The notes: generated by a model not told the origin, from the letters alone. A stretch of DNA of 64,000 nt from Candidatus Moanibacter tarae (GCA_003226295.1 CP029803.1:1481477-1545476), one strand, 5' to 3'. Shown: positions 36,901 to 61,493, counted from the first letter of the stretch. Numbers and translations: made by a program.

Positions 36901-36914
36901 GTTGATCACTTACT

Positions 36915-38813: not shown

Positions 38814-38819
38814 ATACGG

Positions 38820-43105: not shown

Positions 43106-44089
43106 ATGCGAAAACACCTCATTCTATTACTTTTCACACTCTATATATCCGTTACCCTAACTGCGGATGAAACGTTGTGTAGCGAAATAGCAGAACCCGG
43201 CCCTAGAATTCCAGCTGGGATTGAGATTAAGCGGGCTCTTGCTTATAAGAAAGTCGGAGAAACCACCCTCGCACTGGACCTCTATTTCCCCAAAGGGCAT
43301 TCCAATGAATCGTCATTCCCTCTTATTGTTTACGTCCATGGTGGCGGCTACCGACGAGGCACTCGAGATGAAATTAGCGCTGTCCAATTTATGAATGAAA
43401 CTTTCCTTAAGCCGGTTGCTCAGGGACGTTATGCCCTCGCATCAATCGACTATCGTAAAGCGAGCAAAAAGGCTCCCTTCCCTCTCTTGGTTGAGGATAC
43501 GAGAGATGCCGTTAAGTGGCTCAGCATACGTGCTTCCGAATATCACCTCGACCCTGAACGAATCGGACTAGTCGGAGAAACAAGTGGTGGGCACTTGGTC
43601 TTATTGGCTGGCCTGGACAGCAAAATTGGGGCAGGGAAACCGACCGCCAATGGAAAGCCCCCTCATCCAGCTTCCTTTATCATGGCGTTTGCCCCTCCTG
43701 CTGATCTTACCCGTATCGCGAAAAGCGTTACTGACAGCGGTAAAAAGGGAGATAAGAAGATATATAACCAACTTAAGCTGGGGCTCGGCGGCAGGGTCGA
43801 CGAGATTCCAGAAGCCTATGCAGCTTCCAGTCCTGTAAACTATTTTCATAGCTCTTCCCCACCTACTCTTGTCATTGTGGGAAACCAGGACAAAAGAAGG
43901 GAACAAGCCGAATGGCTTCGGGAAGCCGCCAAGGAAACAACGGCCATGCTTGAAGTGATCGTAATCAAAAACGCAGGGGATCAAGCCTACCGAGGCTACG
44001 AGAATATGACTCCTTCAATTGAGGAACTAAAATCGTACCTTCAGAGCTTCATTTCCAAGCATTTCAACAACACGGTCAGCCACAAATAA
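43106..44089 (+). CDS. alpha/beta-hydrolase fold esterase/lipase (secreted)
   Basis: Signal peptide, the oxyanion-hole motif YVHGGGY, and the nucleophile elbow GETSGGH (GxSxG). Confidence 0.75.
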   Translation: MRKHLILLLFTLYISVTLTADETLCSEIAEPGPRIPAGIEIKRALAYKKVGETTLALDLYFPKGHSNESSFPLIVYVHGGGYRRGTRDEISAVQFMNETFLKPVAQGRYALASIDYRKASKKAPFPLLVEDTRDAVKWLSIRASEYHLDPERIGLVGETSGGHLVLLAGLDSKIGAGKPTANGKPPHPASFIMAFAPPADLTRIAKSVTDSGKKGDKKIYNQLKLGLGGRVDEIPEAYAASSPVNYFHSSSPPTLVIVGNQDKRREQAEWLREAAKETTAMLEVIVIKNAGDQAYRGYENMTPSIEELKSYLQSFISKHFNNTVSHK

Positions 44090-44563
44090 TTCTAATCCAA
44101 GGAAACCGACGAATCTTTGGCGTTTGCACTGACTCAATCCGAATACTAAAAGCCAAACTCTTTCAGGAAGAGAAAAGCTGGAGTTAATCCCCTTCCTTTT
44201 TTAGTTCTCTTAACTTGAATTCATCATCCACTAATTACTTAAATATTATTCTCCATTGATTGCCGCCCTCCTATTCACCGCTACAGTTTCTTTTCCTGAT
44301 CAACGACAGTCCTAGCGGAAAATCTAAACCTCCGAATGATTTATTTACGAATTGACCAACAAGAACTCGATTAATTGGGAAATCTAGTGGAGCAGTCCCC
44401 TGCCAAAGCAGTCACACCATTAGGAAAAAGTTGTTAATATGCTCCATTTTCTCAAGATACTGGGAAGTAATTAGATTTATCACGATTGACAAAAAACAAG
44501 ACCCGCTTCTTCTTTCCAATCTTTATACTTTAACATCACAATCCAAAACTGAGACTATTAATT

Positions 44564-45436
44564 ATGCCAAGTAGCGAGACCGTAGGATTCATTGGAACTG
44601 GAGTTATGGGCCGTAGCATGGCTAACCATCTCCTCGACGCAGGCTACCCTGTAAGCGTCTATAATCGCACCAAGGAAAGGGCAAACTCTCTCTTTGAAAA
44701 AGGTGCAGTCTGGAGAAATTCTCCTGGAGAAGTTGCCGCATCCTCCTCTGTTGTCATTACTATCGTTGGCTTTCCCAATGATGTTGAATCAGTCTACCTC
44801 AGCGAAAATGGGATTGTAGAAAATGCGAATTCGGGATCGCTCCTCATTGATATGACTACTTCAAGTCCGGTCCTTGCTCAAAAGATCTCGCAATCAGCAG
44901 CCGCCAAGGGAGTCGACACGCTTGACGCGCCAGTTTCAGGAGGTGACATCGGGGCTCGCGAAGCTCGTCTTTCTATAATGGTTGGCGGCGAAGAGCAGGC
45001 CTTTGACCGGGCCAAGCCTCTTTTTGACTGCATGGGAAAAAATATCATGCTGATGGGATCGGCTGGAGCCGGCCAACACACTAAAATGAGCAACCAGATC
45101 GCTATTGCCTCAGGAATGATTGGGATTTGCGAATCGATGATCTACGCGAAGCAATCTGGGCTTGATCCCGCACGCGTTGTTCAATGCATTGAGAGCGGTG
45201 CTGCTGGCAGCTGGTCGCTAAGTAATCTAGCTCCTCGCTTCCTCAAAGGTAATTTTGACCCCGGTTTTTTCGTCAAACACTTCATAAAGGATATGAAGAT
45301 TGCGATCGAAGTGGCCGAAGACATGAAACTTGATCTTCCAGGTCTCGCCCTCGCTAAGAGACTCTACGAACAAGTTGTATCAGAAGGTGGTGAAGACTTT
45401 GGCACTCAAGCGCTCTACAAAATCTATGACCGCTGA
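44564..45436 (+). CDS. 3-hydroxyisobutyrate dehydrogenase / 2-hydroxy-3-oxopropionate reductase family NAD(P) oxidoreductase
   Basis: VGFIGTGVMGRSMANHL N-terminal dinucleotide fold, a 6-PGDH-like C-terminal domain, and 290 aa. Confidence 0.8.
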   Translation: MPSSETVGFIGTGVMGRSMANHLLDAGYPVSVYNRTKERANSLFEKGAVWRNSPGEVAASSSVVITIVGFPNDVESVYLSENGIVENANSGSLLIDMTTSSPVLAQKISQSAAAKGVDTLDAPVSGGDIGAREARLSIMVGGEEQAFDRAKPLFDCMGKNIMLMGSAGAGQHTKMSNQIAIASGMIGICESMIYAKQSGLDPARVVQCIESGAAGSWSLSNLAPRFLKGNFDPGFFVKHFIKDMKIAIEVAEDMKLDLPGLALAKRLYEQVVSEGGEDFGTQALYKIYDR

Positions 45437-45504
45437 GTCCTACTGTTCACAATAACGGAAAGTCTATCACCCGAAGTACCAAGATTTGACGCTTCTCGGG
45501 AGGT

Positions 45505-45882
45505 CTAACTCTCGAGGATCTCAATCTCGTATCCATCCGGATCATCCACGAATGCCATTTTAAGTCCAGAGACGAACTGCTCGCGCCAACCGTCAGGCCA
45601 AATCTCCAGACCATTCTTTTCCAAGCGATCACAATATTCTATGATGTCCGGAACTCCAATCGCTAAGTGCATAAGGTCATCTGGTATATTTACCTCATAG
45701 TCGGGCGAATAAGTTAGCTCTAGAGTTGTTTCATTCCCAGGCAATTCGAGGTGCACGATCTGATTTCCGGCAGGCGACTTGTCGTTTCGACTTTTCAAAA
45801 CGAAGTCGAAGTTATCACAATAATAATTTATAGATTTCTCTAAATCACTGACACGCACTCGGGTATGGAGGAATTTATTCAT
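45505..45882 (-). CDS. VOC/glyoxalase I family protein (lactoylglutathione lyase-like)
   Basis: MNKFLHTRVRVSDLEKSINYY N-terminal beta-alpha-beta-beta-beta module and a distal metal-ligand His/Glu. 125 aa. Confidence 0.7.
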   Translation of the reverse strand: MNKFLHTRVRVSDLEKSINYYCDNFDFVLKSRNDKSPAGNQIVHLELPGNETTLELTYSPDYEVNIPDDLMHLAIGVPDIIEYCDRLEKNGLEIWPDGWREQFVSGLKMAFVDDPDGYEIEILES

Positions 45883-46555
45883 AAGCTCCTTGATTGGAGT
45901 TTCTTTCTAAATCGTGGTTCAAATATCGGGCACTAGGAAAATCCCTCAGGGATAGCTGTGCAAACTTAATCGATCTGGAACAAGACTCATATAGAATAGC
46001 TACAAGAGATACAGAAACCCGTGACAAGTACAACCCTGAGGCAGTCCATACAAAACAGTATTGTGCAGATCTCAGAAAGCCCTCGCCTGGATATCTGACA
46101 GCTGCCCAAGTCTTGTGAAGGTTATAATCTTATATCGCCTTAATTTTGCCAAGTTATCGACTTTAACTGCTCCCTAACTTAACGCATCCATAGCAAACAA
46201 AACCCGAGATCAATACTCAGGACAAGTTCATCCGGATTTTAAGTTGTATTTCCAATTAAAGGTTCGTTCACAGATTACGGAGACTGTGCATCTGTTCAAT
46301 ATTTTGTCGGCGTTCACGCGATTCAAACTTCAGATTCATTGCACCATGCCACCGGAATACTAATAAATAACAGCAAATTTGACATCCGTTACTTAATAAC
46401 GAAAGGTGCGCTCCTTCTGTTGAGGAGATTTTTTGTTTTGATCCCTTCCATTTATTTACCAGTCGTCGCAGTCAAATTCTTTAGGAAAGCCAAGTCAGGA
46501 ATAAGATTATCTTCTAAATACGGTTGGAAGACGTCACAGAATTTTGAACAAACCC

Positions 46556-47677
46556 TTAGTGAAAATCGCCCACGTTAATACCTCCCTTGTCCGTATTCCC
46601 GTTGAAAAGCCGACCTCAATCTCAACTAGGCAGCTCAGCGCAAGAGAATACGTCGTTGTTTCGGTAGAATCTGATTCTGGAGAAACGGGACACGGCTACA
46701 CCTATGCTGGAACAGTTGCTGGCTATTCTACCTTATCATTTGTTAAGGACGTCTTTATTCCTCTGATACTGGACTGCGATCCTCACCTTATTGAGCGCCT
46801 CTGGTCGAAAATGTACCAAGAAGTTTTACTCTCAGGTCGCCGTGGAGCTGCCATTCGTGCTCTCTCTGCCGTTGATATCGCACTCTGGGACCTTTTGGCG
46901 AAATCCGCCGGACTTCCTCTCTACCGTCTCCTCGGAGGGAGTTCCGATCGAGTTCCTGCCTATGCTTCTGGCGGTTATTATCGTCCTGGTGATTTGCTTG
47001 AAAATGTACGCGAGGAGATAACAGCTTACCAAGATCTCGGTTTCACTGACTTTAAAATCAAGGTAGGAGGTTCAGATTTTGACACTGATGTCGCCCGCGT
47101 AAAGGTCGCACGTGAAACCATCGGTTCCAGTGGTCGCCTTGCTCTCGATGCAAACAATGCATGGAAGTGGCCCCATGAAGCAATCCGGTTCGCTCGTGCA
47201 GTTGAAACTGCCGATATTTGGTGGCTCGAAGAACCGCTATCACCTGATGATTTCGAGGGGCACGCAGAAGTCGCCCGCACCCTTGAAATTCCGGTTGCCA
47301 CTGGCGAAATTCACGCCACCCGATGGGAATTTCGCCAGCTTATAGAACATCATTCTGCCGATATCCTTCAACCCGACGCCGCTGTTCTTGGAGGGATTTC
47401 GGAATATATGAAAATCGCTCATTGTGCCGCCTCGTTCAATCTTCCATTAGCCCCTCACTGGCACGCGAATCTACATGCCCAGCTCATCGCTGCTGTCAGC
47501 AACGGCCTAACAGTCGAATTTTTTGCCTTAGAACAGGACATCTATAATTTCGAACGCCTCCTTACTCCAGACACCCGCCTAAGGCCAACTAACGGCGAAA
47601 TCTACTTACCCGATCGACATGGAATTGGCATTGAATTTGACCAAGAATCCATCAATCGCTGGAGGGTTAATTCGTGA
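46556..47677 (+). CDS. enolase-superfamily (mandelate racemase/muconate lactonizing) enzyme
   Basis: MR/MLE N-terminal domain, then the KxK context (FKIKVG) and the metal-ligand D/E/D positions (LDANNAW, WLEEP, ILQPD). The GTG start at 46556 is preferred over the upstream TTG. Confidence 0.8.
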   Translation, partial: LVKIAHVNTSLVRIPVEKPTSISTRQLSAREYVVVSVESDSGETGHGYTYAGTVAGYSTLSFVKDVFIPLILDCDPHLIERLWSKMYQEVLLSGRRGAAIRALSAVDIALWDLLAKSAGLPLYRLLGGSSDRVPAYASGGYYRPGDLLENVREEITAYQDLGFTDFKIKVGGSDFDTDVARVKVARETIGSSGRLALDANNAWKWPHEAIRFARAVETADIWWLEEPLSPDDFEGHAEVARTLEIPVATGEIHATRWEFRQLIEHHSADILQPDAAVLGGISEYMKIAHCAASFNLPLAPHWHANLHAQLIAAVSNGLTVEFFALEQDIYNFERLLTPDTRLRPTNGEIYLPDRHGIGIEFDQESINRWRVNS

Positions 47678-47823
47678 TTCACTTAACACACGCAAAATAG
47701 CGTTGAGAATAGTTAAATTGCCCCAATACATCTAACTTATCAGCTAATTCGTTCAATGTACGAACAATCAAAAGGACAAATTTCATCGCCAATGTGGGCA
47801 GGCCGTGAAGTCCACGACTCTAA

Positions 47824-48660
47824 ATGAATTTTGCCCTCCGTCTGGTGATAGGGATTGCGATCGCTTACGGTGCCATCCTTCTTCTTGTTTCATTTTTCCA
47901 ATCTAGCCTAATCTACCGTAACCAGAAACCCAAACCTACTCGGCAAATTGTCCAGGACGGGGGCCTCAGATTCTGGCCAAAAAACAATAACTTGTACCGT
48001 GGTCTGCTGGCAACCACTCCAGCAGAAAAGTCCAAGGGTCTAGTCGTGGTCTTTCACGGCAACGCCGGAACTGCCGCCGATCGCATGCACTATTCTCGAG
48101 CCTTGAACCCACTAGGTTATAATGTTCTACTGGTTGAATATCCGGGCTACGGTGGACGTGATGGAAGCCTAAACGAGAAGTCCTTTGTTTCCGACGCCAA
48201 GGAAACAGTCCGACGCGCCAAGGCCGAATTGGGAGGCCCCATCTATTTATGGGGCGAATCTCTTGGTTGCGGAATTGCGAGCGCCGTTGCTGCGGATCCT
48301 CTAACCCAAGCCGATGGAGTCATTCTAGTAACTCCATGGGATACTCTCGCTGATTTAGTCCAGACTCTTTATTGGTACTTTCCTGCCAAGTGGCTGCTTC
48401 GCGACAAATACGACAACATTCGAAATCTTCAGAAATTTGATAATCCCATCGCCATCCTTGTCGCAGAAAATGATGAGATCATACCCCCCCACCATGCTTT
48501 CCGCCTCTTTGAAAGTCTCTCACCCTCCAAACGCAAATGGATTTTCCAGCGCTCTGGTCACAACAATTGGCCGTCTGATGCGACTGAATTCTGGTGGAAA
48601 GAAGTAATGGACTTCGTCTCTCTTGTAGACGGAAACTCCTCCATTCAAGTAATGCAATAA
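47824..48660 (+). CDS. alpha/beta-hydrolase fold protein
   Basis: N-terminal TM anchor, the VVFHGNAG oxyanion region, and the nucleophile elbow GESLGCG. Confidence 0.7.
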   Translation: MNFALRLVIGIAIAYGAILLLVSFFQSSLIYRNQKPKPTRQIVQDGGLRFWPKNNNLYRGLLATTPAEKSKGLVVVFHGNAGTAADRMHYSRALNPLGYNVLLVEYPGYGGRDGSLNEKSFVSDAKETVRRAKAELGGPIYLWGESLGCGIASAVAADPLTQADGVILVTPWDTLADLVQTLYWYFPAKWLLRDKYDNIRNLQKFDNPIAILVAENDEIIPPHHAFRLFESLSPSKRKWIFQRSGHNNWPSDATEFWWKEVMDFVSLVDGNSSIQVMQ

Positions 48661-48839: not shown

Positions 48840-49214
48840 TCAATAAATTGCGACCACTACTCGATTCCGTTCCACACGCACCGGGTAAGTTTTCACCCGA
48901 CCACGATGTGGATTGGCAATCGCTTCACCTTTTCTAAGGTCAAACTCCCACCCGTGCCAGGGACAAATTAAGATCTCTCCGACCCGATCAAGTACAATCT
49001 CTTCCCCCGGAAGACATGGCTTGATAGCACCGCTTACGAATCCTCTCGAAAGGGAAGCTCCCTGATGAGGGCAAACGTCCCGAAGGGCGAAAAAGGAATC
49101 TTCCTTACGAACGAGAACAATGGCCTTCCCGGCTAATTGTACTCGACAGGCCCGTCCTTTTTCAAAATCGGATACCGCACCAACGTCATACTCATTTGAA
49201 CCCATAGAAATCAA
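48840..49214 (-). CDS. Rieske [2Fe-2S] domain protein
   Basis: CPHQGASL (CxH) and CPWHGWEF (CxxH) Rieske ligand boxes in 124 aa. Start overlaps the amidohydrolase stop. Confidence 0.8.
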
Positions 49215-50325
49215 CTGCGTTCTCCACCATAATCTTTCTTCTTAGCCTGCGGTCAATGATAGACGGAAGAGACCGATCTGGAGAATCGAAATCCCAGTGC
49301 GGATAATCTGTCGCAAACATCAAAAAATCATCCCGTCCAATCATCTCCATAATCTGCGGTAGGAAGCTCGGTTCCGGAGGCTCTTCCATAGGCTGAGTGG
49401 TCGCCCGAAAGTGGTGAAGGATGTACTCACTTGGAGCTTTCTGCAGCCAGGGGACTTCGCTTCTCAGTCCCCGGTAATTCTTGTCCAATCGCCACATCAG
49501 TGCTGGGATCCAAGCAAATCCCCCTTCTATGAGAACGATACGCAAATCAGGTAACTCCTCAAACACTCCTTCACAAACGAGACTTATGACATGAGTCTCA
49601 AAGGCCTGGGTCATACTTGTGTGATCCTCAATGTAATATGAGGGCCACCCGCAGGCAGTTATTGGATTACCTCCTCCCCCAAAATGAATTCCAACCGGCA
49701 ACCCAGCCTCGGCTGCCGCCCGGAAAATTGGTCGAAATTCACGGCGCCCGTAGGGAGAATGGGATCTAACCAACAAAAGCACCTGTACAAAACGTGAATC
49801 ATCCGCTAGTCGAAGTATCTCCTCCCCCGCTGCCTCAGGATCATGGCTATTGACGACAATCGATCCTCGCCAACGGGGGTCCGAATCTAACCATACCTCC
49901 AACATCCAATCGTTCATCGCCCTCATCAATACGTTTGCAAGATCGATATTATATACTGATGAAATCCCCATCAGAGGATTGAGAATAGCCAGGTCAACGC
50001 CCCATTTCTCAATTAACTGCTCCCGCGAGAATCCTGGGTTTGTTCCAGGTTTTTTACCGTCCGGAGGCCATGCATCCCTCCGGGCTGCCATTTCGAAGAG
50101 TTTGGGGTAAATAGAAACTCCTGGTAACGGCATTCCAGATTGTTCAATATAGGTTCTCCACCGCGAAGAGAGAAAGGGAAAAAGATCCTCCATCCCGTTG
50201 GGATAGTTGTGAACGTCAGCATCAATCAAATTTAGCCCTTTTGCCAAATCTACTTCTACATCCCCCCCCGATACAGACGTTTTCATATTTGTTCCCTCTT
50301 CAAAAGCTGGAGCCAGATTTGACAC
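49192..50325 (-). CDS. amidohydrolase-2 (ACMSD-like metal-dependent hydrolase/decarboxylase) family protein
   Basis: TIM-barrel amidohydrolase_2 pattern with the N-terminal IDADVH metal-ligand motif and a distal FATDYPHWD. 377 aa. Confidence 0.65.
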
Positions 50326-50371
50326 TAGTATCTAGGAATTGTCGAACCGTGTTTATATCAAGCAGCATTTT

Positions 50372-51568
50372 CTATTTCTCTCCCTCTCTCCTTCCCAAGT
50401 AAAGGAGTACCAATGCAAAAATTGGGCTTCCCACAGCAGTCAAGGGCAGAATCCAATAGACTTTGCCGAAAACCGAAAGGAGCAGAATAAGATATATAAA
50501 ATCCCGATTACCTAAAGCATCCATGATTTTCGAGATTCTACTCGATCTCGTCCTAACGACGGAGGAAAACGAGGGGATTTCGGTCCGGGCCCAAAACACT
50601 GATTTTCGGTACACTAACCATGCCGTCCACAACACACCTGCAATTGCAATAGCTGTTACGAGCAATGGCCATTTCCCCTGATTTCCAATCCACCATCCAA
50701 TCCCCATACAAAAAAATACAGCAGAATGTACTAAATTATCCCCCCAAAGATCGAGCTTCATACCTATTCGTGACTCCTGAAACCGAAGCCGCGCTAGTTC
50801 CCCATCACATCCGTCAATTATCGCATGAATGAGAAAGAGAAGTGCACCAGTAAATTGATCTATGGCTCGTGCCGAAAGAAAATACGGGCTACTCGATAAC
50901 CCAATTCCAACACTAAAAATTGTCCACAGATTTGGTGAGATTGGCGTCGATACAAGATGCCTAGAAATTGCCAAGGAGATTCGACGATGGAAATGACGGG
51001 CGATAAGGGAATCACTTTTCTTGATCAATCGCTCGAGGAGCCAGCTCTCGGCCTTATCAATCCCTGCGCCACTAGGAATCAAGGTCCGACCTTGATGGTC
51101 TACCTCAAGTAATTCTGTCTCAATCTCTCGATCAAAGACAAGACCTAGATCCTCTTCGCTTCGCCCATATCGGGTCGACGGAAACAATTTTAATGACTTT
51201 TTCGTTTCGATAGCAGCAGCCACCCCAGTGTCACAATAGAGTCGATCTGGTTTCAGTGGTGTCTCCAACAAAGTTTTGAGCCAAGTGGCGTCTGGGAGTA
51301 CACCCCCGACCATGAATACGATCCTCCTGAATCCAGCCAAATCTAACGTCGCATCCAACGATTTAAACTCTACGGTCGTCCCCTCCAGGATTTTTGTCAC
51401 CTCACGGTCCTCTCTCACGGCCACCCAGATGTTGTCAAATCCCGCTCTTTTAGCAGAGAGAACCATCCGGCGAATTAATGGCAATCCAAGTATAGGCTGA
51501 TCCAGTCTAACCGACTCATCTAATTCATCGGGCCAAAGAAAAACAACCAATTGCGATGAAGTCTCCAT
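50372..51568 (-). CDS. two-domain CDP-alcohol phosphatidyltransferase with N-terminal nucleotidyltransferase-like domain (IPCT/DIPPS-like architecture)
   Basis: The C-terminal membrane domain carries an intact D-G-x2-A-R-x8-G-x3-D-x3-D motif (CDGELARLRFQESRIGMKLDLWGD). The roughly 200-aa soluble N-terminal domain has an NTP-transferase-like pattern (PILGLPLIRRMVLSAKRAG) but lacks the Gly-rich loop. The start is taken at METSSQ. Confidence 0.6.
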   Translation of the reverse strand: METSSQLVVFLWPDELDESVRLDQPILGLPLIRRMVLSAKRAGFDNIWVAVREDREVTKILEGTTVEFKSLDATLDLAGFRRIVFMVGGVLPDATWLKTLLETPLKPDRLYCDTGVAAAIETKKSLKLFPSTRYGRSEEDLGLVFDREIETELLEVDHQGRTLIPSGAGIDKAESWLLERLIKKSDSLIARHFHRRISLAISRHLVSTPISPNLWTIFSVGIGLSSSPYFLSARAIDQFTGALLFLIHAIIDGCDGELARLRFQESRIGMKLDLWGDNLVHSAVFFCMGIGWWIGNQGKWPLLVTAIAIAGVLWTAWLVYRKSVFWARTEIPSFSSVVRTRSSRISKIMDALGNRDFIYLILLLSVFGKVYWILPLTAVGSPIFALVLLYLGRREGEK

Positions 51569-51688
51569 CCTAAAGATTAAATCGTAAAGCAACCGCCTTC
51601 AGTTATCCAGATAAACCTTGTCCGTGAAAAGAAGTCGGAAAGGTTGCTTTTTTCTAGACCGCTAAACTCCCACCTAATTCCTATCTAA

Positions 51689-52699
51689 TTAACGGATCTT
51701 TCCTTCATTCTTGAACCAATTGATACTTTCCAAGAGAGATGTACGACAGTCTCGCATGGGCGGCAAATCTAGTTTTTCAGCCGACCGACTACCGTTAAAA
51801 TGTAGAATTCGCTTTGTTAGCTTTACCCCAGTCACAGTGGCCATCGGTAGTTTTCGAGAGTTGAATAGATAGCGAATCCATTCTTCAAAATAGGCAAAAG
51901 TCAGCGCAACGGTATAAGGGATCCGCCGCTGGGGCGCAGGACGATCCACCAGTTTAGAGAGATATCGAAACAAATCGACAATCGTCCAATTCTCGTGGAC
52001 CAGGAGATAGCTCCTTCCCACTTCACCTCTCTGTGCAGCTATCCAGATTCCGGCTGCGACATCCCTAACATCAATAAAGTTAAGATACCCATCGAGATAG
52101 GCCTTAATTCGCCCATTGCAAAAGTCGCAAATCATTCGAGAAGGAGGACCCATGTTCCGATCGCCTGGACCAATTGGAATACTCGGACGGACAATAACTA
52201 CAGGATCGCCGGATTCCGCAGCCTCTCTGGCTGCCTCTTCAGCTAGCCACTTACTCTCACAATAGGGCCCTATCATATCCTCAAAGTCAGTTTGAGTCTC
52301 TTCAGTGATGACACCTTTCATTCCCTTCGGAGATAGTATGGACTCAGTCGAAACATGCACTATCCTCCCGGCTCCTGCTTTTCGCGCAGCCGAAAGCACA
52401 TTTCGAGTCCCTTGGTGATTGACCTGCTCAAACTCCTCTGAGTCTCGTGCCCAGAGATTAGGGTTCGCCGCTAGATGTAAGACCACTTGGCAGCCTTCTG
52501 CCGCATTTTTTACTCCCAAAGGGTCACGAAGATCGACATGAACAATCTCAACCCTATCCGAAGGCAGGTGATGCGTGAGAGCCCCGGGCTTCTCCAGTAC
52601 TCTTACCTCGCAGCCTTCATCCACAAGCATCTTTACAAGATGCGAACCCACAAAACCGGCCCCTCCAGTTACCAATACCTTCCTTTTATTTTCAGCCAC
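51689..52699 (-). CDS. NAD-dependent epimerase/dehydratase (extended SDR; HpnA-like)
   Basis: KVLVTGGAGFVGSHLVKMLVDEGCEV Rossmann motif, the YxxxK context (YCESK), and 336 aa. Confidence 0.8.
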   Translation of the reverse strand: MAENKRKVLVTGGAGFVGSHLVKMLVDEGCEVRVLEKPGALTHHLPSDRVEIVHVDLRDPLGVKNAAEGCQVVLHLAANPNLWARDSEEFEQVNHQGTRNVLSAARKAGAGRIVHVSTESILSPKGMKGVITEETQTDFEDMIGPYCESKWLAEEAAREAAESGDPVVIVRPSIPIGPGDRNMGPPSRMICDFCNGRIKAYLDGYLNFIDVRDVAAGIWIAAQRGEVGRSYLLVHENWTIVDLFRYLSKLVDRPAPQRRIPYTVALTFAYFEEWIRYLFNSRKLPMATVTGVKLTKRILHFNGSRSAEKLDLPPMRDCRTSLLESINWFKNEGKIR

Positions 52700-52732
52700 T
52701 CTCGAAATTAGCTTTCTAGCAAGTAATTCGAT

Positions 52733-53791
52733 TCATTCTCTTATTTCGATTCCAATCCGTGTAATCTCAATAAGCCTATCAAGCACATCCAAAGAGGGTG
52801 CCTGCTGCGTCTTCTCCATGCATTTAATGAAATTAAAAATCGATCGATTGAGAGGAATTTTACGTTCTCCTGCAAGCTCGATCAAATGACCGTTAAAAAA
52901 GTCAATCTCCGTCCGTCCTTTCTCGATATCACCCGCCATCGAACAGTAGGTGTTACGTAGTGAGTTTGCGAAAGGCTTTGCCAGGATCTTCGCTAGAAAG
53001 GGATAATGAAGAATGCGATTCACGGTGTCAGGATGGAAGGGCCCAATGACTCCTAGAGGCACACCTGCAGCCTTAAGGATGCCATAGTTTTCCTGCAAAA
53101 TCCGAAAGAAGAAATCACGGGCCTTTCGAATTGTTAAAAGCTGACCATTATCTAGACCAGCCATCGCCGCCAACGGACTAATGGCGGCATTATACATAAC
53201 CTTACTGTACTTGTAAGGAAGAACATTAGGAACAATCTTCACATTAAAATCACCATGCTTCTTGAGGACGTCTAACACCCTTATGAATTTCCCTTGAATT
53301 TCCCTCTTATTGTATTCTCCCCATTGGCCAATGTGGAGGTCTCCTCTCCTCGTAATTCGGGTCTGGGTCTTGTCCGGAAGGCATTCGGAAACAAATGATG
53401 CAATTCCTTCTAAGTTACTGCGTTCCATTAATTCTGAATCGAATCCATTCTGGATCGGCAGCACCCCTGCTGATTTAGGTAATCGCTTAAGAATAGATGC
53501 ATTCTCAAAACATTTCGTACAAAGAATGACAACACACGTATCCGAAGGCTTCCACTCCTCGAAGCAAACAAACTTGGCTGATAATAACGAACGATTATCC
53601 AACCCAATTCCATTACGACTACCCCATTCTAGTTTTCGTCGATCGACTTCGACAAACGTTACATCGAACCCGCCGGAAATGAGAGCATACCCTACCGCGC
53701 AGCCAATGCCTCCAGCCCCAACTATATAGATTTCCACGGAACTTTCACTGGGACCTCTGGTCGAACAACTCCAAATTGATCGTCCTTCCAC
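52733..53791 (-). CDS. 2-dehydropantoate 2-reductase (ApbA/PanE) family oxidoreductase
   Basis: IYIVGAGGIGCAVGYAL dinucleotide fold at the N-terminus and a KPR-like C-terminal helical domain. The true start is probably near 53734, which gives about 330 aa. Confidence 0.65.
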   Translation of the reverse strand: MEGRSIWSCSTRGPSESSVEIYIVGAGGIGCAVGYALISGGFDVTFVEVDRRKLEWGSRNGIGLDNRSLLSAKFVCFEEWKPSDTCVVILCTKCFENASILKRLPKSAGVLPIQNGFDSELMERSNLEGIASFVSECLPDKTQTRITRRGDLHIGQWGEYNKREIQGKFIRVLDVLKKHGDFNVKIVPNVLPYKYSKVMYNAAISPLAAMAGLDNGQLLTIRKARDFFFRILQENYGILKAAGVPLGVIGPFHPDTVNRILHYPFLAKILAKPFANSLRNTYCSMAGDIEKGRTEIDFFNGHLIELAGERKIPLNRSIFNFIKCMEKTQQAPSLDVLDRLIEITRIGIEIRE

Positions 53792-53947
53792 TACCCTTAA
53801 AAATTAAATGATTCACACTTTATGATAGCACGTTCCTACTACATTCAAGTACATTACTTCATATCTCGATATACTTGTAATCCAGGAGGCTTTGGACCTA
53901 TCTAACTTGAAAAATTCCAAGACCCAGATAAGGCATAGTAATTGAAC

Positions 53948-54712
53948 CTACTGGACAACAAGCCCACCGTCAACCGTCATCATATGGCCAATAACAAATG
54001 AAGCTTTGTCCGAACAGAGCCAGATGACAGCCTCAGCGATCTCCTCGGGCTTTCCGACACGTCCAATCGGCTGCCAACTATCAGCTTCCGCCTTTAAGTC
54101 AGGGTTGCTCGCGTAGATACGATCCATCAGCGGCGTGTTGACTAGCCCCGGGCACACGGCATTGATACGAATGCCCCGGCCCGCATACTCCACAGCGGCC
54201 GACTTGGTCAATCCGGCGACCCCATGCTTACTTGCCACATAGATTGGTTGATCAGGTATACCAACCAACCCTGCAACTGAAGAGCTGTTAACAATTGCGC
54301 CGGACCCTTGTTCCAGCATCTGCGGGATTTGGTACTTCATACAAAGCCAGGCCCCCTTAAGGTTTGTATCGATCAGCGTTTGGAAAGTCTCCTCAGCATG
54401 TCGCTGGTCTGGATTGGAAATTTCCCGCTCAATACCTGCGTTATTAAAGGCAAAATCGAGTCGGCCATAGGTCTCAATAGTCTTGCGAATCAGAACCTTG
54501 ACCTCGTCAGAAACCGTTACATCGGCTCTAACGAAGGTTGCCTCTCCGCCAAAGTCTTCAATCATGTTAACAGTCTCACCAGCACCTTTTTCATACATGT
54601 CGGAGACAACTGTCTTGGCACCCTCTCGAGCAAAGGCTAGAGCAGTGGCCCGACCTATCCCAGATGCACTACCAGTTACAAGTGCGACGTTACCCGCGAA
54701 CCATTCTTTCAT
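53948..54712 (-). CDS. SDR family oxidoreductase (FabG-like)
   Basis: ALVTGSASGIGRA, NNAG, catalytic YVASKHGV, and the PG motif. 254 aa. Confidence 0.85.
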   Translation of the reverse strand: MKEWFAGNVALVTGSASGIGRATALAFAREGAKTVVSDMYEKGAGETVNMIEDFGGEATFVRADVTVSDEVKVLIRKTIETYGRLDFAFNNAGIEREISNPDQRHAEETFQTLIDTNLKGAWLCMKYQIPQMLEQGSGAIVNSSSVAGLVGIPDQPIYVASKHGVAGLTKSAAVEYAGRGIRINAVCPGLVNTPLMDRIYASNPDLKAEADSWQPIGRVGKPEEIAEAVIWLCSDKASFVIGHMMTVDGGLVVQ

Positions 54713-54850
54713 TTTTATTCCTCATCAACAGGGTTACCATATTTTCCCAACCATTTTTATGTAATAAAATGCTCGATCTATCTACCCATCAATAATTTAA
54801 ATCAGTAAACAAGTCCATCCACCGGAAAATACAAAAGACGTTGAAGAGAT

Positions 54851-56110
54851 TCATGAATCAGCTATCCCGTCTCGGCATATTGCCGCTGTCGCATACCATC
54901 TCTGGTCTTTTATGACGGTTTCCCACCATCGGCTCATGTCTCTTTCGTTCATCCTTCCCCAATCTCTCGTCCCATCCTGTAAAGCTTCACCCATTCTTTG
55001 CGCTAATGCAACCAGCCTATCACCTTCCAACCGCTGCTCATCATCCCAAAAGGTCAGAGCAGTATCCAGTGATTGATTAGCCTTAAGGATCTCTGTAAGG
55101 GACATAACACTATACAGTGCCTTGGTAGCTCCAGCCGCAACATGGGGTCGGACAACAGCAGATGCATCACCAAGCAGACAGATATTACCCCTTCGGTAAC
55201 TCGGTATATTGCCATCAAATATTGCCTGTATAAACGGTCGGCCGGTGCGAATAATCATTTCTGCAATAAATTCGGGCAGAAACCTCAGAGCCTGCTCATG
55301 GAGCTCTGAAATCCTCTCATCCGAAACACTACCAGCGGGTAATGAAGTAGCGTGGATTGTACCGTTTCGGTCGGTGAGAGATTTAGCTAAATCGACTTCA
55401 GGCGTATTAACATACCATCCCCAGTTGAGTCGCCGTTGTCCAACCTCGGTTTCGCCATTACGCCCCGGGACAAGGTAAGCTATGAGATGGCCCAAAGGGG
55501 TAACAGCAAAGATATTAATCCCTTCCAGAACCGTAACGTCGTTGATAAGCTGCTCATCTATCAAACCTCGCCACATTATGTATCCAGCATATCGAAGTCC
55601 TTGGTCAGGGTATAGTATACTCCGGCCAGTCGACATGTACCCATCGGCGCAAACGACAAGATCAAAGACAGCATCTTGACCAGAAGCTAGTTCGACTACG
55701 GTGCCCCCTTCTCTCTCCTGAAAACCTGTCACTTCGCAACCTTGATGATAAATATCGTCACGTACACGTTTACGCAGAGTCCGATAGAGTGCATCCCAGT
55801 TGGTTGCAGCAATGTCGAAGTTTTGCTCCCAAAGAACACGTCTTCCACCCCCAGAGCGAGTATAGAAATCTCGCCTCCTGATGGGTAATATAGCCATTTT
55901 AGTATCAAAAATGTCACGCTCCTGGAGTGCCTCGACGAGGGCAAATGGGAATCCGATACCCGCACCTCGATCCTTTAGTGAACCCGTTGAGCGCTCGAAA
56001 ACTGTAACATCACACCCAGCGCGATCGAGTTCTATCGCAGCGGCACACCCAGCAATGGACCCCCCGATTATACACGTCCTTAATCCTTGGGCTACTCCTC
56101 TTTCTGACAT
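54851..56110 (-). CDS. FAD-dependent monooxygenase (UbiH/PHBH-like aromatic hydroxylase family)
   Basis: CIIGGSIAGCAAAIELDRAGCDVTVFER FAD fold, the distal DG motif (VVCADGYMS), and the GD motif (LLGDASAVVRPH). Confidence 0.8.
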   Translation of the reverse strand: MSERGVAQGLRTCIIGGSIAGCAAAIELDRAGCDVTVFERSTGSLKDRGAGIGFPFALVEALQERDIFDTKMAILPIRRRDFYTRSGGGRRVLWEQNFDIAATNWDALYRTLRKRVRDDIYHQGCEVTGFQEREGGTVVELASGQDAVFDLVVCADGYMSTGRSILYPDQGLRYAGYIMWRGLIDEQLINDVTVLEGINIFAVTPLGHLIAYLVPGRNGETEVGQRRLNWGWYVNTPEVDLAKSLTDRNGTIHATSLPAGSVSDERISELHEQALRFLPEFIAEMIIRTGRPFIQAIFDGNIPSYRRGNICLLGDASAVVRPHVAAGATKALYSVMSLTEILKANQSLDTALTFWDDEQRLEGDRLVALAQRMGEALQDGTRDWGRMNERDMSRWWETVIKDQRWYATAAICRDGIADS

Positions 56111-56298: not shown

Positions 56299-56391
56299 TG
56301 GCGGAGAGGGCGGGATTCGAACCCGCGAGGCCCTTTTTAGAGGCCTACTCCCTTAGCAGGGGAGCGCTTTCGGCCACTCAGCCACCTCTCC
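56299..56391 (-). tRNA. tRNA-Ser (anticodon GCU)
   Basis: The minus-strand sequence is GGAGAGGTGGCTGAGTGGCCGAAAGCGCTCCCCTGCTAAGGGAGTAGGCCTCTAAAAAGGGCCTCGCGGGTTCGAATCCCGCCCTCTCCGCCA. It has a 7-bp acceptor stem (GGAGAGG/CCTCTCC), a D-loop, anticodon stem CTCCC/GGGAG with loop CTGCTAA (anticodon GCT), a long variable arm typical of Ser, the T-loop GGTTCGAATCC, and an encoded CCA. Confidence 0.85.
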
Positions 56392-56641: not shown

Positions 56642-57631
56642 TTAGTTAGACCTAGTTCTCAATAATTGCTGACTTTCCACAATCTGCCATAGCAGTAGCG
56701 CAGGAATTCCAAAAAGGAGGGTACGGGCTCGAACCAAAAGAGCGAGCGCAAGTCCAGTTTCAGGACCTAGGCCGAGGGCCGTTCCTAGAACCATGAAACC
56801 ACCCTCCTGAACACCTAGAGCACCAGGAATAAAAAACACGGCATTGCGTACCGCATGCGTCATGCTTTCAAGCATTATAGCTTCGATTATACCAATTGGA
56901 TGACCGAGAAAATGAAGACCGATTAGAATCTGACCAGTCCCTAAAAAGACCCCCATCATGCGCCAGAACACTGCATAAAAGAGATCCCTTTTTTTCTGAT
57001 AGAGCTTATCTAGGGCTGTATCCAAGGCCTTTGCACCCCCTGTAACACTCTGCCAGTTTGCCACTTTTACGATCTTCTCAATGCGTTGTGCTAGGCGTGA
57101 AAACATTCCCCAGCGTTGAGCAATGTAGAACCCCATAACGCACAACAAAAACAAAGAAATCCCACCGATCGCAGCATGGGCAGTTTCCCCAAATCCGTAG
57201 TAATAGATGAAGAAAGCTATACCCAAAATAACGAAAATCGACTGAGAAGCGATCGCCAAAGTCACGTCGACGATGACGCTCGCACCAGCCTCGGAACTCC
57301 GAGATCCCCTAAGAGAAGCCAATCTAACCCTAAGCAACTCGCCTCCCACCTGAGCAACTGGCAATAGACTGTTTGCGGAAGTTCCCACCCACCGAATCCA
57401 ACAAACGGAGACGAATGAAGGCCGTCCCGCTGCACCCAATAAAATCCACCAACAAATAGCACTGGCCGAGAATGGGATTACACTGTAGGCTACCATTGCA
57501 AGCAGTCCCCACCCAGACTGAACGAGGGCCTCGGCCACCTTTCCGAATCCCTGAATCACAACCAATCCAAGCATCAATGCTATACCGATCAGCCAGAGTA
57601 GGATAGTGAAAATACGCATCGTAAACCTCAA
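56642..57631 (-). CDS. UPF0104 / lysylphosphatidylglycerol-synthase-TM-region (flippase-like, HpnL-like) membrane protein
   Basis: About 8 TM helices and 329 aa. The N-terminus MRIFTILLWLIGIALMLGLVVIQGFGKVAEAL, the conserved positions and the length fit the LPG_synthase_TM-only family. Confidence 0.65.
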   Translation of the reverse strand: MRFTMRIFTILLWLIGIALMLGLVVIQGFGKVAEALVQSGWGLLAMVAYSVIPFSASAICWWILLGAAGRPSFVSVCWIRWVGTSANSLLPVAQVGGELLRVRLASLRGSRSSEAGASVIVDVTLAIASQSIFVILGIAFFIYYYGFGETAHAAIGGISLFLLCVMGFYIAQRWGMFSRLAQRIEKIVKVANWQSVTGGAKALDTALDKLYQKKRDLFYAVFWRMMGVFLGTGQILIGLHFLGHPIGIIEAIMLESMTHAVRNAVFFIPGALGVQEGGFMVLGTALGLGPETGLALALLVRARTLLFGIPALLLWQIVESQQLLRTRSN

Positions 57632-57935: not shown

Positions 57936-58451
57936 TTGATCCAAAGACTCTTCAAACTAATCCACCTCTTCCCCTCAATACCCATGCAACCCCATAACTG
58001 GAAGATCTCTTCGATATACTGTTCTATAGCCCTAGTTTCTTATTCCCAAGTCTGCGGCGTGAATTTAGCAGAGGGAAAACTGCTCTCCGGCACACTCAGT
58101 ATTCAGATCTCCGGATTGCGAAGCAAAAAAGGAACACTCAGGATCGGTCTATTTAATTCTAAGGAGACATTCTCCAAGAGAGGGAAAGCTCTTCGCTCAG
58201 CGGTAGTGAAACCGAATTCAAGAAAGGTCGAAACCAGCTTTAAGGAACTACCCTACGGAAATTACGCTATTTCCCTCTACCACGACGAGAACGACAATGA
58301 CAAATACAACCTAGGCCTTGTACTGTTTTCACGCGAGCGCTACGGGTTTTCCAACAATGTAAAACCCGGTCTCAGGGGACCCCCGTCCTTCGAAGCCGCG
58401 ATGTTCCTAATGAACTCAGATGAGAAAGTCGTAACAATAAAATTACATTAG
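57936..58451 (+). CDS. DUF2141-like secreted protein
   Basis: Signal-peptide-like start. GTLRIGLFNSKETF and YHDENDNDKYNLGLVLFSRERYGFSNN match the DUF2141 consensus pattern as I recall it. Confidence 0.5.
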   Translation: MIQRLFKLIHLFPSIPMQPHNWKISSIYCSIALVSYSQVCGVNLAEGKLLSGTLSIQISGLRSKKGTLRIGLFNSKETFSKRGKALRSAVVKPNSRKVETSFKELPYGNYAISLYHDENDNDKYNLGLVLFSRERYGFSNNVKPGLRGPPSFEAAMFLMNSDEKVVTIKLH

Positions 58452-59576: not shown

Positions 59577-61493
59577 TTAATGGGCCAATGTCGCCCTTTC
59601 ACGAGGCACAGAAATTTGGTTCAAGCGCTTCAGGATACGATTGAAGATCGAATTATTGTCGAGGTCGTTAACAGCACGTAGATCACCGACAGAACTCCCA
59701 TGATCAACAAAACGGTCAGGCCATCCAACAATCTCAACAGGAATTTCACAGGAGGACTCATTGAGAGCTTCCAAGACAGAGGAACCAAAGCCTCCTTTTG
59801 AAACATGATCTTCTATTGTCACGATCAGTTCCATCTTACTGGCGTGCTGCATAAGAAGCTCAAGATCGATTGGTTTAGCGAACCTGGCATTGACTACACC
59901 GGCTGAAATCCCTTCTTCAACTTCCAATCGATCCGCTAATTTGAGAGCTTCCTGAACCCAAGGACCTAGAGCCCAAAAAACAAGCTCTTTCCCCTCCCTT
60001 AGAACCTCGGCCTTGCCAATATCAATATATTGGGGGTCATCTTTTATAGTCACACCTGAAGCCTCCCCACGCGGATAACGAACAAAAGTCGGATCGGATG
60101 TATAAAGGCTCGTCCAAAGCATGTCCACTAATTCGTCTTCGTCCTTGGGCTGCATCACAACCGTACCCGGTATGCATCGTAAATAAGCTATATCGAAAAG
60201 ACCATGATGAGTCGGACCGTCCTGGGGAGATAGTCCAGCCCGGTCCATACAAAATGTCACTGGAAGGTTTTGGACGCCAACATCGTGAATGATCGGATCG
60301 TAGGCCCGCTGCAGCATTGTTGAGTAGATGGCACAAACCGGTCGAAATCCTTGGGTCGCTAATCCAGCCGCAAACAGCACAGCATGCTCTTCCGCCATCC
60401 CCACATCAAAAAATTGTTTTGGGGAGGCTTCGCGCAGCATATTCAAACTGGTTCCCGCCGACATAGCAGCCGTTATTCCCACCACTTTCGAGTCCTCTTT
60501 TGCAAATCGGACCATAGCCCTCCCAAAAACGTCCTGAAATTTGGGCGGACCTCCTGGTTTTCCCGGCTTGCTCTTACCTGTTGTAATATTAAAGGGGCTC
60601 GGACCATGGAATTTTTCCGGATCTTTCAACGCCGGTTCGTAACCCTTTCCTTTTGTGGTCATGATGTGGAGAACAACCGGACGGTCACAATTCTTACAGA
60701 ATTCGAGGTAGTGGGTAACCGCTTCTAGATCATTCCCCTCAATTGGACCAAGGTAGCGCAGTCCGTAGTTTTCGAAAAGTGACGATGGTACAAACAACTC
60801 TTTGGCCTCTTTTTTTGCCTTTTTCCCGATTTTTATAAGGGATTCACCACCAGGCAATTTTTCCAGGAACTTACTGACATCCTGATCGATACGGTTGTAA
60901 ATTGGATTGGTGATCAACTCATTGAGATACTTTGATATAGCCCCAACATTCGGCGAGATAGACCACTTGTTGTCATTTATTACGACGATGAGCCGCTTAG
61001 TGTGAATCGCCACATTATTAAGGGCTTCCATAGTGATTCCACAGGTTAATCCCGCATCGCCAACCACGGCTACAACGTGCTCATCACTCCCTCTGATATC
61101 TCGTGCCACCGCCATTCCAATAGCAGCGGAAAGCCCGGTTCCTGCATGCCCCGCACCATAACTGTCGTGAGCACTCTCCGTTCGACAGAGGAAACCACTT
61201 ACCCCCCCCGTCATCCGAATATTCTTAAAACCGTCTCCTTGCCGTCCAGTTAGAAGCTTGTGGACATAGCCCTGATGGGAAACATCAAAAGTGAATTTGT
61301 CTCGCGGGGAGTCGAACACCCGGTGCAAGGCAAGAGTGAGTTCTACCACTCCCAGATTGGGGCCCAAATGACCCCCATTCACAGACGTTACTTCGATAAG
61401 TTCTTCACGGATTTCATCAGCTAACTTAACCAACTCGTGCTGAGTAAGCTTTCTAATATCCGAGGGTTCATTTATTTCATGTAGGATTGCCAT
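59577..61493 (-). CDS. dxs: 1-deoxy-D-xylulose-5-phosphate synthase
   Basis: N-terminal GGHLGPNLGVVELTLALHRVF, the TPP motif GDAGLTCGITMEALNNV, and a transketolase-like C-terminal. 638 aa. Confidence 0.92.
   Translation of the reverse strand: MAILHEINEPSDIRKLTQHELVKLADEIREELIEVTSVNGGHLGPNLGVVELTLALHRVFDSPRDKFTFDVSHQGYVHKLLTGRQGDGFKNIRMTGGVSGFLCRTESAHDSYGAGHAGTGLSAAIGMAVARDIRGSDEHVVAVVGDAGLTCGITMEALNNVAIHTKRLIVVINDNKWSISPNVGAISKYLNELITNPIYNRIDQDVSKFLEKLPGGESLIKIGKKAKKEAKELFVPSSLFENYGLRYLGPIEGNDLEAVTHYLEFCKNCDRPVVLHIMTTKGKGYEPALKDPEKFHGPSPFNITTGKSKPGKPGGPPKFQDVFGRAMVRFAKEDSKVVGITAAMSAGTSLNMLREASPKQFFDVGMAEEHAVLFAAGLATQGFRPVCAIYSTMLQRAYDPIIHDVGVQNLPVTFCMDRAGLSPQDGPTHHGLFDIAYLRCIPGTVVMQPKDEDELVDMLWTSLYTSDPTFVRYPRGEASGVTIKDDPQYIDIGKAEVLREGKELVFWALGPWVQEALKLADRLEVEEGISAGVVNARFAKPIDLELLMQHASKMELIVTIEDHVSKGGFGSSVLEALNESSCEIPVEIVGWPDRFVDHGSSVGDLRAVNDLDNNSIFNRILKRLNQISVPRERATLAH

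Follow-up and report, generated by a model that had tools for sequence, protein, structure and literature searches.

Do the seven closely spaced genes between positions 48840 and 56110 of a 64,000-nucleotide stretch of the 'Candidatus Moanabacter tarae' genome (CP029803.1:1481477-1545476, hereafter the window) encode a single pathway, or have they come together as separate pieces? This marine bacterium of the Verrucomicrobiota, class Opitutae, is known from one 2.6-Mb Tara Oceans contig. A preliminary description of the window had regarded the seven genes as one candidate operon for the tailoring of a small molecule or a lipid head group. Comparison across genomes points instead to a mosaic of modules, each inherited separately, within a hopanoid-type (hpn-like) lipid locus, a reading to which we assign a probability of about 0.6.

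The seven genes

All seven open reading frames (ORFs) of the preliminary description were recovered in the ORF listing of the window, with identical coordinates, and the family names given there were correct at the Pfam level (in row order Rieske, Amidohydro_2, CDP-OH_P_transf, Epimerase/3Beta_HSD, ApbA/ApbA_C, adh_short and FAD_binding-like). They are the following, where SDR stands for short-chain dehydrogenase/reductase and ARO for amidohydrolase-related dinuclear oxygenase.

48840-49214, minus strand: rFd, a small Rieske [2Fe-2S] ferredoxin (Pfam Rieske, 70.9 bits), putative electron donor to the adjacent ARO
49192-50325, minus strand: putative oxygenase of the ARO superfamily, low-potential/rFd-coupled type, from PDB matches and defining motifs
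50372-51592, minus strand: CDPOH1, a CDP-alcohol phosphotransferase of the AF2299/DIPP-synthase type with a cytidylyltransferase-like N-terminal domain (Pfam CDP-OH_P_transf)
51689-52699, minus strand: HpnA-like extended SDR, from a subfamily that is sister to the hopanoid-associated 'sugar epimerase' (TIGR03466, below cutoff)
52733-53791, minus strand: ApbA/PanE-fold NAD(P)H oxidoreductase (Pfam ApbA and ApbA_C; G25-A-G-G-I-G motif)
53948-54712, minus strand: classical SDR of the PRK06172 type (NF004818, 369 bits, above the cutoff of 336)
54851-56110, minus strand: class A flavoprotein monooxygenase of the PRK07236 type (NF005566, 355 bits, above the cutoff of 333)

The spacings between these ORFs (-23, 46, 96, 33, 156 and 138 nt) bear out the range that had been claimed. 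In the public gene calls of the same contig the gap is 156-210 nt between the ApbA-like and SDR genes, 120 nt between the HpnA-like gene and CDPOH1, and 46-85 nt between CDPOH1 and the ARO gene. Co-direction by itself is weak evidence for an operon, since the window has a second co-directional run of eight genes and a run of at least eight genes arises in about 10% of trials when strands are shuffled. Consensus promoter and terminator scans of the window gave site counts at chance level and were uninformative. The Rfam scan returned only a tRNA-Ser, situated between the seventh gene and the gene of an HpnL-family protein.

Conservation of the neighbourhood

The preliminary description had proposed a gene-neighbourhood comparison as one check on a single unit, and had held that scattered genes would speak against it. 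We compared neighbourhoods by aligning 20 CDPOH1 homologs, scanning one genome per prokaryotic species, and searching the 80 loci that the scan gave for counterparts of each protein of the window. As a unit of seven the neighbourhood lacks conservation, and the genes largely scatter. The full set was kept only in L004, an Opitutales metagenome-assembled genome (MAG) with 89-97% amino-acid identity, which also shares the upstream genes for HpnL, a radical SAM enzyme and 1-deoxy-D-xylulose-5-phosphate synthase (Dxs). Judged by its sequence it is effectively the same species as the window genome, so that the synteny of the seven genes there is uninformative. Five genes (ApbA-like, HpnA-like, CDPOH1, Amidohydro_2 and Rieske) were kept in L001/L005 and L003, which are Moanabacter-type genomes, with the CDPOH1-to-ARO gap widened to 333-402 nt in L001 and L003, and with neither the SDR nor the FAD monooxygenase within 10 kb of the cluster.

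Elsewhere only the triad of ApbA-like, HpnA-like and CDPOH1 genes was found, without the ARO-Rieske pair. Its hosts are a fourth Moanabacter-type genome (L006/L086), where the SDR and the FAD monooxygenase were not found beside the cluster either, a Nitrospirae MAG (L007), Tistlia (L011/L084) and a Rhodospirillales MAG (L047). The triad is contiguous in four Moanabacter-type genomes and in these three other hosts. Conversely, the ARO-Rieske pair and the ApbA/HpnA-like pair were each found without the other row genes in other phyla. In L003 a helix-turn-helix transposase-like ORF and a 51-aa ORF (8907-9743) lie between the HpnA-like gene and CDPOH1, which suggests that the triad there tolerates interruption.

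The sugar-acid and hydrolase genes flanking the row are syntenic across the Moanabacter genomes, and the adjacency of the five genes within the genus may therefore be plain inheritance. Downstream of the Rieske gene, at 43106-48660, the window carries esterase, 2-hydroxy-3-oxopropionate-reductase-like, glyoxalase, MR/MLE sugar-acid dehydratase and alpha/beta hydrolase genes, and their synteny in other Moanabacter genomes suggests that this region was inherited as a block. The proteins of about 675 aa encoded downstream of the cluster in L001 and in L006 are not homologous to each other, and an insertion of the ARO pair is thus not demonstrated.

A putative oxygenase and its Rieske ferredoxin

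Two motifs define the ARO superfamily, an N-terminal D-x-H on the first beta strand (site-1 metal ligands) and a C-terminal D-x-P-H-x-D/E (site-2 ligands) that lies some 200 residues or more from the N-terminus, and both are missing from PF04909 hydrolases and decarboxylases (PMC13154177). The protein encoded at 49192-50325 has the PF04909 TIM-barrel fold (Pfam Amidohydro_2, 142.8 bits over residues 34-376) and both motifs, D37-V38-H39, which aligns with the D-V-H or D-I-H of 8sm7, SfbO and AibH2, and D340-Y-P-H-W-D345, followed by F346. It aligns over its full length to the crystal structures 8sm7 (E=4e-91), 8sm6 (SfbO, 1e-80) and 6m1w (AibH2, 6m1w_B/8ful, 2e-71), with H214 and E267 kept in all three alignments, and both motifs are present in 119 of 120 homologs. 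The preliminary description had called it a decarboxylase-type amidohydrolase. It carries the dinuclear-oxygenase motifs, and decarboxylases such as LigW match it far more weakly, at E=1e-15 or above. Ferredoxin-coupled, low-potential AROs have Val or Ile at position gamma1, Trp at gamma4 and an aromatic residue at gamma5; the window protein has Val38, Trp344 and Phe346 at these positions, and a Rieske gene adjoins it.

The Rieske protein (124 aa), with cluster ligands C48-P-H50 and C84-P-W-H87, finds its best PDB matches among dioxygenase ferredoxins, and its gene overlaps the 3' end of the ARO gene by 14-23 nt. It is hence not free-standing, as had been thought, and appears to be the dedicated ferredoxin of the overlapping gene. 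SfbO and three orphan AROs were found precisely through a small Rieske ferredoxin encoded alongside, and AibH1H2 hydroxylates a methyl group of 2-aminoisobutyrate by means of a Mn/Fe cofactor, with AibG as its Rieske ferredoxin and AibF as its reductase. By these motifs and matches the Amidohydro_2 and Rieske genes would together be one known, published type of two-gene monooxygenase module, like the systems AibH1H2/AibG/AibF and SfbO/SfbR (PMC7782822, PMC10401708, PMC10811679, PMC13154177). The window pair shares with them the PF04909 barrel, both motifs, the gamma residues and a small Rieske ferredoxin immediately downstream. It differs from AibH1H2 in having a single ARO gene, with neither an H1/H2 heteromer nor an adjoining reductase gene, and from SfbO in that the sulfonate-binding R232 and R235 are replaced by His and Met, which suggests that its substrate is a different one.

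The family of this ARO is very large, with 60-77% identity across source annotations among which are Latescibacteria, Actinobacteria, Chloroflexi and Verrucomicrobiota. In three distant loci (a cluster named as Chloroflexi, Latescibacteria and an untyped metagenome contig) the ARO gene is followed by a Rieske gene of 120-121 aa with an overlap of about 20 nt. The surrounding genes there are otherwise unrelated, and no CDP-OH transferase lies near the pair in any of the three. In L087 (2928-8728), a distant genome, the pair stands among genes for PhyH, a luciferase-like monooxygenase, a second Amidohydro_2 protein, a creatinase/M24 protein and GCV_T/SoxG- and glutamine-synthetase-like proteins. 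This context hints at the catabolism of an N-alkylated small molecule and is a possible lead to the substrate of the ARO subfamily.

Sterol C-4 demethylation by SdmA/SdmB offers a further comparison, in that it also combines a Rieske-centre oxygenase system with a 3beta-HSD-like SDR in a polycyclic-lipid context. Scores are far under the cutoffs (SdmB 152 against 600, SdmA 26 against 600), and the window Rieske protein is a 124-aa ferredoxin and not a Rieske oxygenase as SdmA is; the likeness is a resemblance only. Among AROs, PtmU3 and DitZ act on diterpenoid scaffolds.

A two-domain CDP-alcohol phosphotransferase

CDPOH1 (publicly called at 50372-51568, 398 aa) has an intact signature, D260-x2-D-G-x2-A-R-x8-G-x3-D-x3-D, residues 260-285 reading DGCDGELARLRFQESRIGMKLDLWGD. 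Among the 20 homologs D260, D263, G264, A267, R268, G277 and D285 are invariant and D281 nearly so (at least 90%). Its best PDB sequence matches are AF2299 and IPCT-DIPPS of Archaeoglobus. An AlphaFold (AF2) model (predicted local distance difference test score 83.8) has the six-helix membrane domain and the N-terminal cytidylyltransferase-like cytosolic domain of these enzymes, and Foldseek aligned both domains over 395-444 columns with AF2299 (E=4e-15) and IPCT-DIPPS (3e-12). The N-terminal domain alone gave weak fold matches to nucleotidyltransferases of the RmlA/GlmU/KdsB type. CDPOH1 has no Pfam NTP_transferase match, and the G-x-G-x-R loop was not found in the consensus of the 20-homolog family, the N-terminus of CDPOH1 itself reading LVVFLWPDELDES at the loop position. 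This loss suggests that the CDP-donor would come from another enzyme.

CDPOH1 thus resembles AF2299/IPCT-DIPPS (PDB 4o6m/4o6n, 4mnd) in its two-domain layout, six transmembrane helices and full signature. It differs from these proteins of Archaeoglobus fulgidus in its identity of just 14-23%, in an N-terminal domain without the glycine-rich nucleotidyltransferase loop, in its bacterial, mesophilic host, and in its partners, which are ApbA-like and HpnA-like reductases and not an inositol-phosphate synthase. Its public annotation as 'bifunctional IPC transferase and DIPP synthase' is not supported, as CDPOH1 reaches only 74.5 bits against a cutoff of 580 on NF041135 (IPCT/DIPPS), over profile positions 209-415 only, and the glycine-rich loop is gone.

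The ApbA-like and HpnA-like reductases

The HpnA-like protein has the motifs GGAGFVG and Y146-x3-K and matches PDB 3wj7 at E=4e-50. HpnA (TIGR03466) is its best curated model, at 314.5 bits under a cutoff of 367.65, followed by SdmB at 152. All HpnA-like homologs paired with an ApbA-like gene score 290-323 bits on this model, which argues for a sister subfamily and not HpnA proper. The ApbA-like protein was likewise considered as a true ketopantoate reductase (PanE/ApbA) and rejected, because all cutoffs were missed (TIGR00745 110.1 bits against 141.35, all equivalog models, including PRK, lying far below) and what it shares with such reductases is just the fold and the NAD(P) motif.

The HpnA-like gene directly follows the ApbA-like gene in every genome locus with a triad, and in 29 of the 80 metagenome loci of a scan seeded with the ApbA-like protein of the window. 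Where the metagenome ApbA-like protein is at least about 56% identical to that of the window, this holds in nearly all cases. The HpnA-like gene, for its part, always occurs paired with the ApbA-like one. CDPOH1 followed the pair in none of the metagenome loci, even with several kb of downstream sequence, and no third conserved partner was seen there apart from occasional HpnN/HpnM or Bac_transf genes. As the pair recurs without CDPOH1 or any other constant partner, it seems to be a module of its own. In L100 it stands beside genuine HpnN (888 bits, cutoff 752) and HpnM (190 bits, cutoff 160) genes, homologs of the L100 HpnN adjoin it in L102 and L092, and in L107 and L110 it comes after a polyprenyl-phosphate sugar transferase.

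The surrounding hpn-like locus

Upstream of the row the window carries the following features.

56299-56391, minus strand: tRNA-Ser(GCT) (ARAGORN, Rfam), between the FAD monooxygenase and HpnL genes
56642-57631, minus strand: HpnL-family flippase-like membrane protein (TIGR03476, 310 bits, above the cutoff of 195.65)
57936-58451, plus strand: DUF2141 protein (Pfam), adjoining the radical SAM gene, in the same position in L172
58473-59492, minus strand: radical SAM enzyme, 339 aa (Pfam Radical_SAM)
59577-61493, minus strand: Dxs (TIGR00204, 714 bits, above the cutoff of 466)
61754-63034, plus strand (public start 61784): CDPOH2, a second DIPPS-like CDP-alcohol phosphotransferase (NF041135, 61 bits, transferase half)
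63366-64000, minus strand: 3' end of hpnN, hopanoid RND transporter, the remainder lying past the window

The contig was read for 7.5 kb past the window through L173 (99.99% identity over the overlap), giving 71.5 kb in total. The full HpnN of the same contig scores 916 bits on TIGR03480 (cutoff 752), and its C-terminal 210 aa are 100% identical to the translation of 63369-63998. In the part past the window (L173 1-10000) the rest of hpnN is followed by genes for an HpnG-like phosphorylase (165 bits, cutoff 187) and an IolG-like dehydrogenase, and then by lpxA and lpxC-fabZ. HpnL, HpnN and the HpnG-like protein are encoded within 4-13 kb of the HpnA-like gene. A classical hopanoid biosynthesis cluster within the window was rejected, no cyclase, squalene synthase, HpnH or myo-inositol-phosphate synthase (MIPS) being found among its ORFs. 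The 7.5 kb beyond also gave no squalene-hopene cyclase, HpnH or squalene synthase. A 664-aa ORF (9174-11168) considered as a cyclase proved to be a dehydrogenase E1 component.

The locus resembles hpn clusters in that HpnL and HpnN score above curated cutoffs, HpnA and HpnG are the best models for their genes, and Dxs is present; it differs from them in that the HpnA-like protein falls under the HpnA cutoff and that CDP-alcohol phosphotransferases are present. In the searchable literature, which most subscription journals lie outside, no described hpn cluster with CDP-alcohol phosphotransferases was found. The functions of HpnA and HpnL were still called unknown in 2025 (PMC12583986, PMC5462960).

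In CDPOH2 the motif is shortened, with G-x2-E-x3-D in place of G-x3-D-x3-D, while the two-domain layout is like that of CDPOH1, to which it is only 24% identical over 131 residues. Possibly it is a variant or inactive enzyme. The radical SAM enzyme has Cys-rich C-terminal motifs and is 60-78% identical across phyla. It was considered as HpnH, HpnJ, HpnP or HpnR, and no such NCBIfam model is among its matches. Its homologs elsewhere stand at the end of a cyclitol operon, adjoining MIPS, NTP transferase, Dxs and CDP-OH transferases. The gene order is SQS_PSY, Dxs, HpnL, HAD, NTP transferase, u282, MIPS and radical SAM in L170; CDP-OH transferase / MIPS, NTP transferase, Dxs, radical SAM / DUF2141 in L172; and CDPOH1, HpnL, radical SAM and CDPOH2 in L038.

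At 35209-39968, on the plus strand, this verrucomicrobium also has genes for a GldA/GldF/GldG-like ABC transporter and a DUF4340 protein. All score under the gliding-motility cutoffs, which makes a generic ABC-2 exporter probable and a gliding system improbable. The Gld-like ABC genes, together with a long Rho, had suggested an origin in Bacteroidota; this was rejected on the 100% match of the window proteins to gene products of 'Ca. Moanabacter tarae'.

The CDPOH1 family in other bacteria

In a neighbour-joining tree the CDPOH1 copies linked to the triad form one clade, with one exception nested inside. Its sister is a large clade from Nitrospirota, Methylomirabilota, Rokubacteria, Acidobacteria and some Alphaproteobacteria. 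A recurrent operon of this sister clade encodes an HpnL-like protein, HAD, NTP transferase, an unknown 280-aa protein, a class-III aminotransferase, a GFO/IDH/MocA dehydrogenase, CDPOH1 and MIPS (L044, L010, L008, L016, L009, L075 and about 30 other loci). Together these enzymes would synthesise an inositol or inosamine phosphate and activate it. Genes for squalene-hopene cyclase (774 bits, cutoff 431), HpnN-like or HpnM-like proteins flank the operon in 16 of 79 loci, and in L044 the order, all co-directional, is HpnM, squalene-hopene cyclase, HpnL, HAD, NTP transferase, u291, class-III aminotransferase, GFO/IDH/MocA dehydrogenase, CDPOH1 and MIPS. Over the CDPOH1 family as a whole, HpnL-like genes accompany it in at least 26 of the 79 loci, and Dxs lies within 10 kb in 15 loci.

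A comparable cluster of Bacteroides vulgatus and Prevotella, with NTP transferase, CDP-alcohol phosphatidyltransferase, HAD and MIPS genes and an LPG-synthase-like gene nearby, is a proposed source of inositol lipids (PMC9246714). These enzyme types, along with an HpnL/LPG_synthase_TM protein, also flank the sister clade. The operons outside Bacteroides differ by adding GFO/IDH/MocA dehydrogenase, class-III aminotransferase and radical SAM genes and by their place in hopanoid clusters, and the window itself has an HpnL gene 5 kb from CDPOH1, but no MIPS, NTP transferase or HAD gene. Searches of the searchable literature, which covers few subscription journals, brought up no inosamine phospholipid and no cluster joining hopanoid genes with an inositol-phosphatidyltransferase, and the sister-clade operon is apparently undescribed.

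The SDR and the flavoprotein

The remaining two genes are syntenic with the rest of the row only in L004. The SDR at 53948-54712 has the motifs TGxxxGIG, NNAG and YxxxK. The flavoprotein finds its nearest solved structure in 2vou, 2,6-dihydroxypyridine 3-hydroxylase (E=1e-40), and does not deserve the label UbiH-like that it had been given (TIGR01988 25.7 against 224.65, TIGR01984 21.3 against 392.2). The idea of aromatic or quinone tailoring is not supported. Membership of the two genes in a unit with the others is not supported and they are probably unrelated to it; as they are absent beside the cluster in other Moanabacter, they could be a small lineage-specific insertion at the tRNA gene.

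Discussion

We propose that the row consists of three modules. Their family identities, catalytic motifs, fold and patterns of conservation are shown by the analysis, and their substrates, the order of steps, the tie to hopanoids and any coupling of the ARO to the triad are inferred. The first (48840-50325) would be a two-component, O2-dependent monooxygenase, in which the putative ARO, with a dinuclear Mn/Fe or Fe2 centre, hydroxylates a C-H bond of its substrate and a translationally coupled Rieske ferredoxin feeds it electrons; the reductase must then be encoded elsewhere. In the second (50372-53791) the ApbA-fold reductase and the HpnA-like SDR would prepare or modify an alcohol, which would be a head group of the polyol/cyclitol type or else the lipid acceptor. 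CDPOH1 would then join a CDP-activated partner, the donor being supplied by another enzyme, to the acceptor hydroxyl, releasing CMP and forming a phosphodiester. The HpnL flippase-like protein and the HpnN transporter would plausibly move the product. The third (53948-56110), the SDR and a class A flavin hydroxylase, would be neighbours of the others only in this species. The triad is a conserved module and may build an undescribed phosphate-linked head group. The earlier idea of a phosphodiester-forming enzyme in a lipid head-group pathway finds partial support and was a reasonable lead for three of the seven genes, the ApbA-like, HpnA-like and CDPOH1 genes.

The original proposal, one operon and one pathway in which an aromatic or polyol precursor is hydroxylated, decarboxylated, reduced and then phosphodiester-linked, we consider very improbable. 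It draws on the co-direction of the seven genes with gaps of -23 to 156 nt, on the full order in L004 and on the five-gene part kept in two further Moanabacter-type genomes. Against this, the synteny in a genome as close as L004 carries no information, the SDR and the FAD monooxygenase are missing near the cluster in L001, L003 and L006, the CDPOH1-ARO gap is wider in L001 and L003, and the ARO-Rieske and ApbA/HpnA-like pairs each stand alone in many other lineages. The motifs of the supposed decarboxylase are those of an oxygenase, and a co-directional run of eight genes is not unusual here. A narrower coupling, in which the ARO-Rieske pair works with the triad in Moanabacter and, whether ahead of the phosphodiester step or following it, hydroxylates the lipid (hopanoid or isoprenoid) or the head group of that lipid, also seems to us distinctly unlikely, if slightly less so. 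In its favour, three Moanabacter-type genomes have the five genes side by side on one strand, hydroxylation of unactivated aliphatic C-H bonds is documented for characterised AROs (PMC7782822, PMC10401708), and HpnL, HpnN and an HpnA-like gene are in the locus. The same ARO subfamily (60-77% identity) occurs with its Rieske gene in non-lipid contexts in other phyla, however, and is missing from the Moanabacter-type L006 and from all other triad loci, while the synteny of the flanks suggests that the adjacency may be merely inherited.

The nature of the triad product can be read in two ways, each of which we hold only tentatively. In one, the two AF2299-type phosphotransferases, HpnL, the HpnA-like/ApbA-like pair and the radical SAM enzyme would furnish bacteriohopanepolyols, or some other isoprenoid lipid, with a polyol or (amino)cyclitol head group attached through a phosphodiester, an unlikely product. 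In the other, equally doubtful, the product would be a soluble polyol-phosphodiester osmolyte comparable to di-myo-inositol phosphate or glycero-phospho-inositol, serving marine osmoadaptation and not a lipid. AF2299 and IPCT-DIPPS, the nearest in structure, take soluble CDP-polyol donors, the six-helix architecture is associated with soluble acceptors, the sister clade is flanked by enzyme types of di-myo-inositol phosphate synthesis (MIPS, NTP transferase, HAD phosphatase), and marine and saline lineages are among the hosts. The family stands recurrently, however, beside HpnL-type flippase-like proteins, squalene-hopene cyclase and HpnN/HpnM-like genes, the ApbA/HpnA-like pair lies beside HpnN/HpnM in L100, and Bacteroides clusters of like enzyme types have been proposed for inositol lipids (PMC9246714).

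Several observations weigh against a mosaic of modules in an hpn-like lipid locus. AF2299 and DIPP synthase work with soluble CDP-polyol donors and have no role in lipid processing (PMC4634129), and this keeps the soluble-osmolyte reading alive. No squalene-hopene cyclase, MIPS, cytidylyltransferase or HAD homolog is among the ORFs of the 64-kb window, and most ApbA/HpnA-like pairs have neither a CDP-OH transferase nor a hopanoid gene nearby. Co-transcription of all seven genes is possible, given the short gaps and the lack of any conspicuous terminator, and the occurrence of five genes together in three Moanabacter-type genomes makes a lineage-specific functional link between ARO and triad possible. 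The neighbour-joining tree of CDPOH1 was made without support values, and the loci compared are phylogenetically non-independent.

For annotation, the mosaic reading means that the 'amidohydrolase' of this row is a putative O2-activating dinuclear oxygenase and that the public IPCT/DIPPS name of the transferase is unsupported. It also calls for caution in genome scans, as tight co-directional rows in one genome can be mosaics. Accompanied either by an inositol/aminotransferase toolkit or by the ApbA/HpnA-like pair, CDP-alcohol phosphotransferases recur in at least five phyla next to squalene-hopene cyclase, HpnL, HpnM and HpnN, a pattern that suggests a head-group chemistry not yet described. 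Hopanoids hold a major place among geochemical biomarkers, and even after 25 years hpnA and hpnL have no known role (PMC12583986); here the conserved triad and the cyclitol operon are concrete candidates open to testing. If the lipid head-group proposal is true, they would define an undescribed class of 'phospho-hopanoids' and give a first function to the long-orphan hpnA-like and hpnL genes, and the ARO-Rieske pair of Moanabacter might hydroxylate the same lipid.

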